In this document: positions 3,136-9,641 of the stretch, piece by piece | Numbering within the stretch: position 1 is the first letter of the stretch | Layout: every line of letters begins with the position of its first letter | DNA from: a virus | Lineage: Duplodnaviria; Heunggongvirae; Uroviricota; Caudoviricetes | Virus record (IMG/VR): IMGVR_UViG_648276652_000014 | Location: 1 to 25,990 of that record | Strand: one strand, 5' to 3' | Length of the DNA stretch: 25,990 nucleotides | Translations under genes and position numbers: made by a program | Notes under the pieces: model-generated | The model's input: only the letters and a program-made list of their open reading frames with translations | What the model was told of the DNA's origin: nothing | The model's database searches: none

Positions 3136-3945
3136 ATGAATAATCTGATGGTCATTGATGGTATTGAAGTTCGTCGTGATGCTTATGGGCGTTACAGCCT
3201 GAACGATCTGCACAGGGCAGCCGGGGGAGAACAAAAAAACCGCCCGAAATACTGGCTCTCCAATAAGCAAACCTGTGAATTGATTGAACAACTTTTCACC
3301 GAGGGTGGAATTCCACCTCTGGAACAAAATCAACCAGTTAGCGTCATTAATGGCGGAAATAACCAGGGGACGTATGTCTGCAAAGAACTGGTGTATGCCT
3401 ATGCAATGTGGATCAGCCCGTCATTCCATCTGAAGGTGATCCGTACTTTCGATATGGTAACCAGCGCATCGGAAAAATTATCCGGGCAGGCTGCTGACAA
3501 GATGCAGGCTGGAGTGATTCTGCTGGACTTTATGCGCAGGGAGTTAAACCTGTCTAACTCTTCAGTGCTTGGTGCCTGTCAGAAACTCCAGGAGGCTGTT
3601 GGCTTACCGAATCTGGCACCGCGCTATGCCATTGATGCTCCTGCTGATGCACACGATGGCTCAAGTCGCCCGACACTGTCACTGAGTGCACTGCTGAAAC
3701 AGTATGGTATCCGCCTGACGGCTAATCAGGCATATCACCAGATGGTGAAACTGGGGATCGTCGAGCAGCGCGAACGATACAGCCGTACCGCGATTAACAA
3801 CATCAAAAAATTCTGGTCGCTGACAGCGAAAGGTTGCATGTTCGGCAAGAACATCACCAGTCCCGCAAATCCGCGCGAGACGCAGCCGCATTTCTTCGAA
3901 TCCCGATTCCCTGAGCTGTTAAAGCTGCTCGATACCGTTCATTGA
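3136..3945 (+). CDS. KilA-N domain protein (antirepressor/Bro-like)
   Basis: N-terminus VIDGIEVRRDAYGRYSLNDLHRAAGGEQKNRPKYWLSNKQTCELIEQL matches the KilA-N DNA-binding domain pattern. Start chosen at ATG 3136, which has an AGAGGAG ribosome-binding site at 3119-3125; the track ORF begins upstream at 3103. Confidence 0.75.
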   Translation: MNNLMVIDGIEVRRDAYGRYSLNDLHRAAGGEQKNRPKYWLSNKQTCELIEQLFTEGGIPPLEQNQPVSVINGGNNQGTYVCKELVYAYAMWISPSFHLKVIRTFDMVTSASEKLSGQAADKMQAGVILLDFMRRELNLSNSSVLGACQKLQEAVGLPNLAPRYAIDAPADAHDGSSRPTLSLSALLKQYGIRLTANQAYHQMVKLGIVEQRERYSRTAINNIKKFWSLTAKGCMFGKNITSPANPRETQPHFFESRFPELLKLLDTVH

Positions 3946-3946
3946 G

Positions 3947-4948
3947 GTGATCGTGAGAGCACTACTGACCCCTGAAATTGCCCCGCGTATGGGGATCGTA
4001 TTGTTCAGGCCAGGTTCAGAGCTGATGCCCCTGTTTATGCAGGGGCGTGTCCTGCTGGAGCCTGAGCCGGAGCGTTATTCATCTTTCGCCAGTGGTGCCG
4101 TTCCGGCGGCATCACAACCGCTGGCGGATGATCCTGCCGTTCGGGCCGTGTTCCGCAATGAGGCAGTGATCCGTCGTGCTGGTGGCGTGGAATGTCTTGA
4201 AAGCTGGTTACTTCGTGAAAAAGGCTGCCAGTGGCCTCATTCCGACTGGCACAGCGAGAACATGACCACAATGCGGCACGCGCCGGGCGCAATCCGTCTG
4301 TGCTGGCACTGCGATAACCAGTTGCGCGATCAGTTCACGGAACGGCTGGAATCAATGGCAACGGATAACTGTGCCCGCTGGGTGTTATCTGTTGTGCGCC
4401 GTGATCTCGGTTTTGATGATAGTCACGTTGTGACAATGCCGGAACTGTGCTGGTGGCTGGTTCGTAATGACCTGGCGGATGCCTTACCGGAAAGTGCAGC
4501 CCGTAAGGCACTGAGATTACCGAAGCCTGTTGTGCCGTCTGTTACCCGGGAAAGTGACCTTGTGCCTTCGGTTCCTGCCACCAGCATCATCCAGGATAAA
4601 GCGAAAAAGGTGCTGGCGCTGAAAGTGGATCCGGAGTCGCCGGAGTCTTTTATGTTACGCCCAAAACGTCGCCGCTGGGTTAATGAAAAGTACACGCGCT
4701 GGGTTAAGACACAGCCGTGTGCATGTTGTGGAAAGCCTGCTGATGATCCCCACCACCTGATAGGTCACGGTCAGGGTGGAATGGGAACAAAAGCGCATGA
4801 CCTCTTTGTGTTGCCTTTGTGCAGAAAGCATCACGACGAGCTGCATGCGGATACCGTGGCATTTGAAGAGATGTATGGCTCCCAGCTGGAGCTGATATTT
4901 CGTTTTATCGATCGTGCGCTGGCGATCGGCGTAATTGCGACAGCTTAA
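3947..4948 (+). CDS. DUF968-like phage protein with a C-terminal Cys/His-rich motif
   Basis: C-terminus CACCGKPADDPHHLIGHGQGGMGTKAHDLFVLPLCRKHHDELH matches my recollection of the DUF968 (YdfU-like) family found upstream of Q in lambdoid prophages. The start is uncertain: GTG at 3947 or 3953, or ATG at 3989. Confidence 0.55.
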   Translation: MIVRALLTPEIAPRMGIVLFRPGSELMPLFMQGRVLLEPEPERYSSFASGAVPAASQPLADDPAVRAVFRNEAVIRRAGGVECLESWLLREKGCQWPHSDWHSENMTTMRHAPGAIRLCWHCDNQLRDQFTERLESMATDNCARWVLSVVRRDLGFDDSHVVTMPELCWWLVRNDLADALPESAARKALRLPKPVVPSVTRESDLVPSVPATSIIQDKAKKVLALKVDPESPESFMLRPKRRRWVNEKYTRWVKTQPCACCGKPADDPHHLIGHGQGGMGTKAHDLFVLPLCRKHHDELHADTVAFEEMYGSQLELIFRFIDRALAIGVIATA

Positions 4949-5852: not shown

Positions 5853-6638
5853 ATGTATATATTTGAATTGACCAAACCTGGCAACTGGCTTGAAAGTGAA
5901 GACAAAGAGTGGTCTTGGAAAATAGAACGGCTTTTGGACCATCTTGAATTTGCATTTTATGAGGCTAATGTTGCATTAAATTTATTTATGCAGCAGCAAA
6001 ACAATCAAATAGAACAACAAGGGGTTTCGCAATTGCAATGGGAAAAAGAAATGCAAGAACGAAGAACCATCGAAACACTAGTTCGTGAGGAGTTAGGTTT
6101 ATCCCCTTTTGAGAATCCTGAAAACATACAATTTGAGGTGGACGCGAGGTTTAAACGAGAAAAGTGGAGTTCTGGTGAAATTCCACGTAGCCACAAACAT
6201 TGTGTGATTTTTATTTATGCAAAATCTTTTCTTTATTCTCTTGATACTATTGATAAATTTATAAAGGTTATTTCGAATGAACCTTATGCTCCTGAGTCGA
6301 TAAAAGCCCTACACGATCAGATAGGTAAAGATTTTCCTGATCTCAGAGGGGTTAGGAATTCAACTCAACACCTCGAAGATAGGGCTCGAGGGCTTGGCGC
6401 AGGGAGAGAACCGAAGCCTTTGAATCTCCAGCCTATAAGTAATACCTTCATAAATGCACCGCAAGGTGCTTTGATATTAAATAATCTGAATGGCACCAAA
6501 TTCGGGTCAACTATGTCTGATGGTCACTATGGTGAAGTGGACATTTCACCTGAATCGTTATCAAAAATGCAAAGTATTGTTCAGGGCGTTCTTGACTCGT
6601 TTAAGTGGGTTGGTAATCAGCAACACTTACCAAGTTAA
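5853..6638 (+). CDS. Hypothetical moron protein, 261 aa, with an R-N-x3-H (HEPN-like) motif
   Basis: Long ORF in a visibly AT-rich island between the Q-like gene and the lysis genes, followed by an intrinsic terminator. It contains R168-N-S-T-Q-H173 (nt 6354-6371). I recognise no other family signature. Confidence 0.65.
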   Translation: MYIFELTKPGNWLESEDKEWSWKIERLLDHLEFAFYEANVALNLFMQQQNNQIEQQGVSQLQWEKEMQERRTIETLVREELGLSPFENPENIQFEVDARFKREKWSSGEIPRSHKHCVIFIYAKSFLYSLDTIDKFIKVISNEPYAPESIKALHDQIGKDFPDLRGVRNSTQHLEDRARGLGAGREPKPLNLQPISNTFINAPQGALILNNLNGTKFGSTMSDGHYGEVDISPESLSKMQSIVQGVLDSFKWVGNQQHLPS

Positions 6639-8390: not shown

Positions 8391-8523
8391 TACACCTGTA
8401 CCGTTTATACCCAACCCACTGACGTATGGTGCAAGTCTTGATTTGAATGTAAGTTTGTTATCCGCGTTGGCTCAATGTAATAGGGATAAGTCTGATATCA
8501 GAATCATTGATAATCAAAATTGA
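8275..8523 (+). CDS. Rz1-like outer-membrane lipoprotein spanin (o-spanin)
   Basis: Signal peptide with lipobox LLTGC and a proline-rich mature region. It starts in the +1 frame inside Rz and runs past the Rz stop (overlapped architecture). Start chosen at the internal ATG 8275 of track ORF 8209-8523. Confidence 0.75.
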   Translation: MMIVLHVLCLLPLLTGCGSTRTVYVSIPKTPLPVSLTSDTPVPFIPNPLTYGASLDLNVSLLSALAQCNRDKSDIRIIDNQN

Positions 8524-8627
8524 TGTATATTTTTATCGTCATGTAGATAACGAACAAGGTATTCCTCTGATACGTTTCGTTGAATACAGGTCATGGGTAG
8601 GCATTGCAATATCGCTTCGAAATTATC

Positions 8628-8636
8628 TGTGATAAT
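8628..8636 (+). promoter_or_regulatory. Candidate extended -10 promoter (TGTGATAAT) for the second moron
   Basis: TGnGATAAT lies about 90 nt upstream of ATG 8727 in an AT-rich intergenic region. Weak evidence on its own. Confidence 0.25.
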
Positions 8637-8726
8637 GCTCTTAATTTTGAATGTATGTATTTGGGAAAAGAGATAAAGTAATAGTCTAATTAATGGAGAT
8701 ATCCACAAAACACAAAAGGGACTATT

Positions 8727-9233
8727 ATGCGACCAGATCAATTTTTCTATCCAGATACTTTTACCTTTAATTCATCCACCTATTATGGTCAACGTGACTC
8801 ATCTAAAGGTCGATTGTATATTCCTATTGAAAGTGACTTATGTCCATTTAATATCGGCGATATCATTGTGCAAAAAATGGTCGACAGGGAAAGACTATTT
8901 GAAGTGCTTGATTACGAGGTGCAAATTAGTCTCGAGGCTGGTTGCCCTGGCTACTCACATTTGGCGGTATTGATAGTGAAGGCATTGGATGTAAAAGAGA
9001 AGCCGAAGCAGATTACGACCCATTTGACGTTTAACGGTGCTATTAATGCTGGTGGTGATTTTCAAGCCGGTAATGACAATTCGATCACAAAGAATATAAC
9101 CATTCAACAACTACATGATGCTATAGAGCATTGCAATGATCCAGAGGTTAAAAGCCTTTGGCAAAAGCTATTGGAAAATCCGACGTTTGCTTCAATTGCT
9201 TCAATATTGGCAAAAAGTGCTTTAGGACAGTAA
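8727..9233 (+). CDS. Hypothetical moron protein, 168 aa, no recognised family
   Basis: ORF in an AT-rich island between the spanins and the HNH/terminase genes. Ribosome-binding site AAGGGA 5 nt before the ATG. An intrinsic terminator follows. Confidence 0.65.
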   Translation: MRPDQFFYPDTFTFNSSTYYGQRDSSKGRLYIPIESDLCPFNIGDIIVQKMVDRERLFEVLDYEVQISLEAGCPGYSHLAVLIVKALDVKEKPKQITTHLTFNGAINAGGDFQAGNDNSITKNITIQQLHDAIEHCNDPEVKSLWQKLLENPTFASIASILAKSALGQ

Positions 9234-9242
9234 TTCATCAAG

Positions 9243-9264
9243 CCCCATTCAATATGGGGTTTTT
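9243..9264 (+). terminator. Rho-independent terminator after the second moron
   Basis: Stem CCCCAT (9243-9248), loop TCAAT, stem ATGGGG (9254-9259), then TTTTT. Confidence 0.6.
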
Positions 9265-9290
9265 ATGCTTATTACAAAGAGTTTTCTTCA

Positions 9291-9641
9291 ATGCCACCAC
9301 GAACTCCAAAAGCCTGCCGTGTTCGCGGGTGCCGCCGTACCACCACTGACCCGTCAGGTTATTGCGAAAGCCACAAAAGCGAAGGCTGGAAGCAATACAA
9401 GCCAGGACAATCCCGTCATCAGCGCGGCTACGGTTCGAAGTGGGACGTTATCCGCGCGCGTGTGCTGAAACGTGACAAAGGTTTATGTCAGTTATGTCTG
9501 CGCGCTGGTGTGGTGCGTGAGGCGAAAACTGTTGACCACATCATCCCTAAAGCGCATGGCGGCACTGATGCCGACTGTAATCTGCAGAGTCTGTGCTGGC
9601 CGTGTCATAAGGCGAAGACGGCCCGTGAACGGCTTAAGTGA
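9291..9641 (+). CDS. HNH endonuclease (terminase-associated)
   Basis: Cys-rich HNH core (CRVRGC...CESH...DHIIPKAHGGTD...NLQSLCWPCH) in a 116-aa protein immediately upstream of the terminase genes, as in HK97-like cos phages. Confidence 0.85.
   Translation: MPPRTPKACRVRGCRRTTTDPSGYCESHKSEGWKQYKPGQSRHQRGYGSKWDVIRARVLKRDKGLCQLCLRAGVVREAKTVDHIIPKAHGGTDADCNLQSLCWPCHKAKTARERLK

Follow-up and report, generated by a model that had tools for sequence, protein, structure and literature searches.

An accessory gene with a family-level RHIM-like motif in a variable prophage slot of Escherichia coli

Results

A cassette between lysis and packaging genes

The IMG/VR record IMGVR_UViG_648276652_000014 represents an SfV/SfIV-like Escherichia coli prophage. 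We analyzed positions 1 to 25,990 of this record (the window, 25,990 nucleotides), with a focus on a 168-residue open reading frame (ORF) and the cassette that carries it. The gene order of the window is Q, cargo, two holins, a GH19 endolysin, Rz/Rz1, the 168-residue ORF, HNH, P27-type TerS, TerL, portal, HK97-type head genes, and a contractile tail, which places the spanin genes (Rz/Rz1) upstream of the cassette and the HNH/terminase genes downstream. The view that positions 8483-9290 form an accessory cassette, or moron, between the lysis and packaging modules is well supported.

The variable cassette (8483-9290, + strand) consists of a new 3' end of the o-spanin gene, an AT-rich spacer, the ORF, and a terminator. 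The ORF itself (8727-9233, +; WP_001247186.1) begins with ATG and is preceded, at a distance of 5 nt, by the ribosome-binding site AAGGGA (8716-8721, +). The 203-bp intergenic/promoter region (8524-8726, +) contains a perfect palindrome, ATTATC-TGT-GATAAT (8622-8636, +), that includes the candidate extended -10 element TGTGATAAT (8628-8636). The corresponding pattern TGNKATAAT is rare in the window, with two copies on both strands combined (about one expected), one of which is TGTGATAAT on the correct strand. A sigma-70 scan found no -35 match for TGTGATAAT and omits this element because of the absent -35 partner. Upstream alignment and a pattern scan also pointed to a degenerate extended -10 position lacking the TG, AGTCTAATTAAT (8683-8694, +), which is position-equivalent to TGn extended -10-like elements found about 41-45 nt upstream of the gene in several homolog loci. 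The better promoter candidate in the window is nevertheless TGTGATAAT, at -99, and not the degenerate AGTCTAATTAAT.

Downstream of the ORF lies an intrinsic terminator, AAGCCCCAT-loop-ATGGGGTTT plus a T-run (9240-9266, +), with a 9-bp stem containing four G-C pairs (9240-9262) and a hairpin folding energy of -13.3 kcal/mol; a terminator scan picked it up independently. The same scan shows no terminator between Rz1 and the ORF, so Q-dependent late read-through into the ORF is likely. The G+C content of the cassette is 0.365 (intergenic region 0.325, ORF 0.391), compared to 0.492 for the lysis genes, 0.554 from HNH to TerL, and 0.532 for the whole window. A previous sequence-only reading of this DNA had described an ORF with a good ribosome-binding site, a TGnGATAAT extended -10 candidate, an intrinsic terminator at 9243-9264, and a composition more AT-rich than that of the flanking lysis and packaging genes. 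Each of these features was recovered in our analysis, the -10 element as a sequence candidate and the terminator within the boundaries given above.

Beside the palindrome, a stretch at 8631-8649 matches the Fur-box consensus at 13 of 19 positions, and the palindrome region (8622-8649) could conceivably be an operator, perhaps under iron control. As a Fur box, the stretch is unconvincing, given that 15 matches of equal or better quality occur within the window.

A variable cargo slot

A comparison of related prophages, proposed in the sequence-only reading as a check for variable cargo, bears out the moron interpretation: all eight relatives examined differ from the window in the content of the slot between Rz1 and HNH, with two empty slots and six that hold different cargo. 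The prophage of strain 998 (locus L018) has the same holin-holin-GH19-LysC lysis cassette and an empty slot, with a gap of just 26 nt between Rz1 and HNH. Homology of the window to this prophage stops at 8482, within the 3' end of Rz1, and restarts exactly at the HNH start codon at 9291, which defines the inserted unit as 8483-9290. The slot is likewise empty in SfIV (291-nt gap). The cargo of the occupied slots comprises six small genes, including those for DUF2560 and DUF2513 proteins, in one relative; an 83-residue ORF, a DUF2441 protein, a trypsin-like peptidase (opposite strand), and a DUF6173 protein (opposite strand) in four others; and a homolog of the 168-residue ORF together with a 119-residue ORF in a viral contig. 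Of 5426 complete E. coli genomes, 1099 have the HNH-TerS module, and no more than 28 of the 1099 carry the full cassette. The ORF therefore adds a gene between two that are neighbors in related phages, it has its own terminator as far as the sequence indicates, and its base composition departs from that of its flanks. Together, these comparisons lend good support to the assignment of the 168-residue gene as cargo in a variable slot.

Family size, distribution, and mobility

The encoded protein belongs over its full length to phrog_5789 (E 3e-79), a family of unknown function. It has no match in Pfam, NCBIfam, PADLOC, PDB sequences, or, by Foldseek, among viral models. The former suggestion that it lacks any recognizable family motif hence holds for Pfam, NCBIfam, and PADLOC, but not beyond them, since the protein belongs to phrog_5789 and an RHIM-like motif is recognizable at family level. 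The family is small, with 22 clusters at 90% identity among 5.8 billion proteins and 78 representatives at 50% identity among 1.84 billion proteins, all of them in phrog_5789. Among complete E. coli genomes, 28 carry the window variant and 76 a canonical variant (about 2% together), the latter including strains 042 and SMS-3-5; none of the 60 listed of the 76 canonical genomes has both types. We found no paper that mentions the family accessions or phrog_5789.

Homologs occupy strikingly different genomic positions. They are found downstream of three different lysis cassettes and, at the end of a prophage, next to the abortive-infection gene BstA. Others are encoded on the opposite strand: one separates TerL from portal in a podovirus-like prophage, one is flanked by genes for injection proteins and primase in Serratia, and those of capsid-forming PICI (cfPICI) in Klebsiella and in E. 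coli strains 042 and D8 lie between primase and capsid genes. The Klebsiella, 042, and D8 satellite elements fit the published description of cfPICI (PMC10085698). At enterobacterial and satellite loci, the G+C content of the gene is 0.39-0.43, usually well under that of its flanks, and in most cases a hairpin plus T-run follows its 3' end. Homologs encoded on the strand opposite to all of their neighbors must have their own promoter, and this layout supports, by analogy, autonomous transcription of the window gene. The distribution of these loci shows the cassette to be mobile, apparently as a promoter-gene-terminator unit, among unrelated phages and satellites.

Strain 042 is the reference enteroaggregative E. 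coli (EAEC) strain and lends itself to experiments. The sole opposite-strand gene of its cfPICI (locus L069, 6707-7213; NC_017626.1, 2242542-2243048) encodes the canonical family member WP_001053661.1, with the motif NIGSISGNQVQIGEHNHM, and is situated between the replication module and the capsid gene.

The gene might instead be a lysis or morphogenesis accessory of the late operon, its product being, for instance, a lysis regulator or a neck protein of the head-closure type. Its orientation is that of the late genes, the scan shows no terminator that would separate it from Rz1, and three homologs also lie downstream of lysis cassettes. However, more than 97% of the prophages that have this packaging module lack the gene, as does one prophage with the same lysis cassette, and homologs occur at unrelated positions and on the opposite strand. 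The likeness to head-closure proteins (Phage_HCP) is one of fold only: the protein has neither a Phage_HCP match in Pfam nor sequence similarity to the head-closure protein of the window, and it is located outside the head-tail block. The structure 2kz4 is, moreover, not homologous to the head-closure protein of the window. We consider a late-operon accessory role highly improbable.

Domain architecture

An AlphaFold2 monomer model, built from a 21-sequence alignment, suggests a protein of three parts. The N-terminal domain (residues 1-90; 8727-8996, +) contains a confidently predicted six-stranded beta-barrel (residues 10-86) with a predicted local distance difference test score (pLDDT) of about 85-92. 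Residues 91-120 are modeled as unstructured (pLDDT below 50), and this part overlaps the central motif LTFNGAINAGGDFQAGNDNSITKNIT (residues 100-125; 9024-9101, +), whose core is FQAGNDN (9060-9080). The C-terminal region (residues 126-168; 9102-9230, +) is predicted to be helical, with three helices at residues 126-165 (pLDDT about 65-77), and ends in the amphipathic tail NPTFASIASILAKSALGQ. In most family members, the tail is a hydrophobic, Gly-rich helix, TVASIVGAGASALLGLL, with a 17-residue Kyte-Doolittle mean of 1.6-2.1.

Across the family, the module of motif plus helices is joined to differing N-terminal domains. Relatives with an N-terminal extension yielded no informative Pfam domains; one of them has a C-terminal GNAT domain and is probably a fusion. 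Two further leads were discarded. Assignment as a PilZ-type receptor for cyclic di-GMP is contradicted by the absence of the RxxxR and (D/N)xSxxG motifs, and a match to P0025 (4708 residues) is an artifact, being the sum of 35 weak matches to cadherin-like repeats.

A central motif that resembles RHIM amyloid cores

The central stretch is among the most conserved parts of the family, and yet the monomer model leaves it unfolded. In the close subfamily, residues 110-120 have a column identity of 0.87, compared to 0.66 for the barrel. Among 42 members with a mean identity of 35%, the only positions conserved in at least 90% are G115, N118, and K142. The family consensus reads NIGSvSGxxVQvG(N/D)xN(t)Q..NIt(i), the canonical motif segment being NIGSISGNQVQIGEHNHMLVNISI, and most of the wider family has V/I-Q-V/I-G-x-x-N at its core.

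In a blind search, we compared a family-wide motif profile of 28 columns with 177,635 distinct PDB sequences (E<=10). It returned six matches, and all six are RHIM amyloid cores, with E-values of 0.047 and 0.053 for RIPK1, 0.48 for M45 of murine cytomegalovirus (MCMV), and 1.0-1.5 for RIPK3. The alignments pair the hydrophobic-Q-hydrophobic-G-N/D-x-N pattern of the family with IQIGNHN (RIPK1, M45) and VQVGDNN (RIPK3), and near-invariant residues of the family coincide with the Q, G, and N positions of the RHIM. A column-permuted control profile gave one unrelated match and no RHIM. In a Pfam scan of the 42 members (E<=10), RHIM (PF12721) was the most recurrent family (5 of 42, best E 0.0015); a single member matched the HET-S motif model (PF17108) in the motif residues, below threshold.

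A degenerate DNA pattern for IGS(I/V)xGxx(I/V)Q(I/V)GxxN, scanned over one genome per species, yielded 27 matches where we estimate that roughly 7 would be expected. About 21 of these are Gammaproteobacterial family members, and one marks a locus in a member of the Streptosporangiaceae. Over IMG/VR, the degenerate DNA motif gave chance matches only. Taken together, the profile comparisons show the motif to be RHIM/BASS-like at family level, BASS denoting bacterial amyloid signaling sequences. The protein of the window has no direct match, and its likeness to RHIM is derived from the aligned, conserved residues Q113, G115, and N118 that it shares with the wider family.

Gene pairs with a common motif

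The same motif in the products of adjacent genes is the arrangement that defines bacterial amyloid signaling sequences (10.1101/2020.01.06.895854), and four loci of relatives display it (L070, L057, L015, and L047). In the cfPICI of E. coli D8 (L070, 4910-6213; NZ_CP010151.1), a two-gene operon encodes a 254-residue protein, with the motif and without a hydrophobic tail, and immediately after it a 169-residue protein that has the barrel, the motif, and the tail. The pair recurs in this arrangement in Winslowiella, with the genes 4 nt apart (L057, 3649-4932). The two members of each pair differ in their N-terminal domains and share the motif, and the D8 pair looks like a sensor/effector pair with a common amyloid-like motif. 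L015 contains tandem paralogs of the family, and L066 two family genes 1.5 kb apart.

At a Streptosporangiaceae locus from a metagenome-assembled genome (L047, 377-3442; JBOHCO010001806.1), the motif is at the C-terminal end of one ORF and at the N-terminal start of the next. The first ORF is large, with a zinc ribbon and transmembrane segments, and ends in ...VITVGSVSGSGIQLGSGNVQ; the second encodes 249 residues and starts with MSGHINIGSVSGQGIQIGSGNQQ. Neither protein has a Pfam domain. On the basis of this layout, we classify L047 as a BASS-type pair that has the motif of the phage family.

A phage of the same type as the window (L038; IMGVR_UViG_3300031151_000034) has superfamily members in both of the slots that flank its lysis cassette: a VQVG-type gene of phrog_16834 between Q and holin (3623-4114, -) and an FQAG-type gene between Rz1 and HNH (6001-6504, +), the product of which is 57% identical to the window protein.

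Beside the tandem pair of L015, a C-terminal fragment (2050-2514, -; ...RTLTNLYNERPTWL...AYGW...) is present, which we take to resemble the C-termini of MmeI/BREX-type DNA methyltransferases; if so, it would suggest a defense-island setting.

The first moron and the prophage background

The claim that two cargo genes bracket the lysis cassette also proved sound, in that the contents of the interval from Q to the holins vary as well. In the window, this second slot is occupied by an AT-rich stretch (G+C content about 0.38) with a 261-residue ORF (5853-6638, +) of phrog_5322, function unknown, without a match in Pfam, NCBIfam, or PADLOC. Related prophages have genes for an ATP-dependent nuclease, an ATP-binding protein, or a nucleoid-associated protein in its place. 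We considered this first moron as a motif partner or relative of the 168-residue family and rejected the idea (hhalign probability 0.4%). Its residues 14-36 (ESEDKEWSWKIERLLDHLEFAFY, 5892-5960) bear a superficial likeness to residues 135-157 of the second moron (HCNDPEVKSLWQKLLENPTFASI, 9129-9197), which at 26% identity over 23 aligned residues is not significant.

The 1 kb spanning the 168-residue ORF is 100% identical in five complete E. coli genomes and 98.4% identical in phage vB_EcoM-689R6. A scan of IMG/VR with close relatives of the protein returned, for the most part, near-identical prophages. The whole window is about 98% identical to a prophage of strain SCU-482, from which it diverges upstream of about 2398. 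In this SCU-482 prophage (L001, 2783-6009, with 3922 onward corresponding to about 320-2408 of the window), RefSeq annotates five successive early genes as frameshifted pseudogenes (Cro/CI, ymfL, a helix-turn-helix protein, PerC/yfdN, and an adenine methyltransferase), and an IS5 lies just 5' of them. These pseudogenes could reflect either a decaying prophage or assembly errors.

Discussion

The sequence-only reading considered a defense, anti-defense, or conversion function possible, and the present evidence favors, still tentatively, a specific mechanism. We tentatively propose that the 168-residue protein is an amyloid-switched effector of abortive infection or exclusion, an interpretation that we judge possible, if somewhat short of an even chance. 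It is based on the swappable N-terminal domain, the conserved RHIM/BASS-like segment that is unfolded in the model, the membrane-seeking tail, and the motif-sharing pairs in relatives. It is further based on the location of family members in accessory slots of prophages and satellites, in one case beside BstA, and on the precedent of Bab/Agp, an abortive-infection system that relies on amyloid signaling, resides in E. coli prophage hotspots, and employs the BASS11 motif (Ibarlosa et al. 2024, 10.1101/2024.11.07.622273).

According to this proposal, the candidate extended -10 promoter would read the cassette in the lysogen, probably with Q-dependent late read-through as an additional source of transcript. 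The product would be a cytoplasmic protein of three parts, in which the variable N-terminal beta-barrel might constitute the sensing or binding part. A trigger, which might be a component of an invading phage that the barrel binds or a partner protein sharing the motif, could concentrate or release the protein. The central motif, about 26 residues in length, might then stack into a cross-beta (amyloid-like) polymer that clusters the C-terminal tails at the inner membrane. Finally, the ensuing membrane damage would abort the infection or exclude the superinfecting phage. Promoter use, amyloid formation, membrane action, and the role in defense are steps that we infer.

Several observations weigh against an amyloid-switched effector. 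At the level of the motif, the RHIM scores of relatives in Pfam are 13-14 bits, below the gathering threshold of 20, and the PDB matches to RHIM are individually marginal. The protein of the window has no RHIM match in Pfam, a profile of the FQAG subfamily alone finds no RHIM in the PDB, and the sequence F-Q-A-G-N-D-N departs from the RHIM tetrad (I/V)-Q-(I/V/L/C)-G followed by x-x-N. The motif is internal (residues 100-125 of 168), not terminal as in described BASS proteins, and is thus placed neither at the C-terminus of an effector nor at the N-terminus of a sensor. A six-frame search of the 26-kb window identified no second ORF that bears the motif. The tail of the window subfamily, NPTFASIASILAKSALGQ, is weaker than that of most members, with a Kyte-Doolittle value of about 0.7-1.2. 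Moreover, the PADLOC-DB 2.0 defense models match neither the window protein nor canonical members nor the partner proteins. Bell or HeLo effector domains and NLR or TPR-GreAB-PIN sensors are likewise missing from the Pfam domains of the protein and its neighbors, and the effector-like part of the protein would be its C-terminal helical region of roughly 45 residues with the tail.

The same evidence can be read in terms of a different cargo function, in which the central segment is an ordinary Gly/Asn-rich linker or oligomerization strand that resembles RHIM through convergence or coincidence. The protein might then serve, for instance, in exclusion, anchored by its tail, or as a regulator. Such a reading gains from RHIM scores that are sub-threshold throughout, from the missing RHIM match of the window subfamily taken alone, from the internal position of the motif, and from the negative result with defense models. 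It accounts less readily for the specificity of the PDB search, in which RHIM cores made up six of six matches and were missing from the shuffled control, for the coincidence of the near-invariant residues with the RHIM Q, G, and N, for strong conservation in a segment without structure in the monomer, and for neighboring gene pairs with a common motif. We regard a cargo function of this kind as plausible, if rather unlikely.

Alternatively, the protein could act as an anti-defense decoy, with a motif that co-assembles with amyloid-signaling proteins of the host, such as those of the Bab/Agp type, and blocks them in the way that M45 and ICP6 act on RIPK3 signaling. A host defense of this kind does exist in E. 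coli (10.1101/2024.11.07.622273), the gene is virus-borne and single, with no motif partner in the window, and viral M45 was among the blind PDB matches. Read-through from Q at the end of the late operon would provide lytic expression, and the divergent FQAG core could serve as a capping variant. On the other hand, the moron layout and the opposite-strand placement of homologs point to a gene that is expressed in the lysogen and not at an early stage of infection, and a conserved membrane-seeking tail in a constant C-terminal module with variable N-terminal domains looks like a sensor-effector design. The location of the gene beside BstA and in the accessory slot of cfPICI and the two-gene operons of family members also speak against a decoy, which we regard as improbable.

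RHIM-type amyloid signaling governs necroptosis in animals as well as fungal cell death. For bacteria, to our knowledge, amyloid signaling has been predicted only for filamentous species, with Bab/Agp as the one experimental case. With still greater reserve than we attach to the effector role of the single protein, we suggest that phrog_5789 and its partners could represent a hitherto undescribed class of immunity modules with an amyloid switch, found on temperate phages and cfPICI of unicellular Gammaproteobacteria, E. coli 042 among them, in which an RHIM-like motif links a swappable sensor to a membrane-seeking tail, encoded by a single gene or a two-gene operon. Within such a class, the FQAG variant would either be self-contained or tune or block signaling as a capping or decoy variant. 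The literature that we searched does not describe RHIM-like proteins encoded by phages or satellites of bacteria.

If this proves true, a second and structurally different amyloid family would indicate that such switches are a common currency of the conflict between phages, satellites, and hosts. The 168-residue, single-gene protein, together with its natural two-gene versions, would then offer a compact model for the coupling of amyloid nucleation to a trigger. Whether bacterial viruses employ RHIM-like motifs in defense or in counter-defense, as herpesviruses do, could also be tested directly. In addition, there is now a testable hypothesis for a gene that about 2% of complete E. coli genomes carry.

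Comparison with known systems

The morons of lambdoid phages and HK97, such as lambda bor and lom, were reportedly described by Juhala, Hendrix and colleagues in 2000. The cassette resembles these classical morons in being an extra gene with its own terminator and a deviant composition, and like bor it adjoins the lysis genes. Classical morons also have their own promoter, for which the cassette offers a candidate. Its protein belongs to an unrelated family, however, and has no lipoprotein or outer-membrane signal. The coupling of an amyloid motif to a membrane-targeting helix is reminiscent of the HET-S/NWD2 pore-former of Podospora (as described in 10.1101/2024.11.07.622273), but the protein has no HeLo domain, its domain order is different, and the similarity to PF17108 amounts to the single sub-threshold match in the family.

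A virus-encoded RHIM-like motif is a feature shared with MCMV M45, itself among the PDB matches, and with ICP6 of herpes simplex virus (HSV; reviewed in PMC13506858). These are necroptosis inhibitors of eukaryotic viruses with large ribonucleotide reductase-like (RNR-like) domains, whereas the window encodes a small protein of a temperate phage with a membrane-seeking tail. A further comparison is with RHIM (PF12721), BASS3, and the fungal PP motif (Dyrka et al. 2020, 10.1101/2020.01.06.895854). The family consensus hydrophobic-Q-hydrophobic-G-(N/D)-x-N aligns with the RHIM cores given above, and adjacent genes in relatives share the motif. In contrast to these motifs, the upstream Gly of the family is offset by one or two residues from the G-hydrophobic-Q-hydrophobic-G signature, family scores stay under the Pfam threshold, the window variant is FQAG, and Bell and NLR domains are missing. 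The family is hosted by unicellular Gammaproteobacteria, their phages, and their satellites, rather than by filamentous bacteria.

Another parallel is Bab/Agp. No TPR-GreAB-PIN (Agp) or NLR partner was found, and the gene stands alone in the window. The order of parts also differs: in Bab, a Bell-type helical domain has its hydrophobic helix at the N-terminus and the motif is C-terminal, whereas here a beta-barrel comes before an internal motif and the hydrophobic helix is at the C-terminus. The residues named in the published description (I87-G88-S89-V90, D99-N100, and four glycines) are compatible with NIGSvSGxxVQvG(N/D)xN, which we treat as no more than a lead. The two systems share an E. 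coli host and a location in prophage or defense hotspots, and in both cases a small protein combines a short Gly/Asn-rich motif, disordered in the monomer, with a helical part that includes a hydrophobic, membrane-directed helix.

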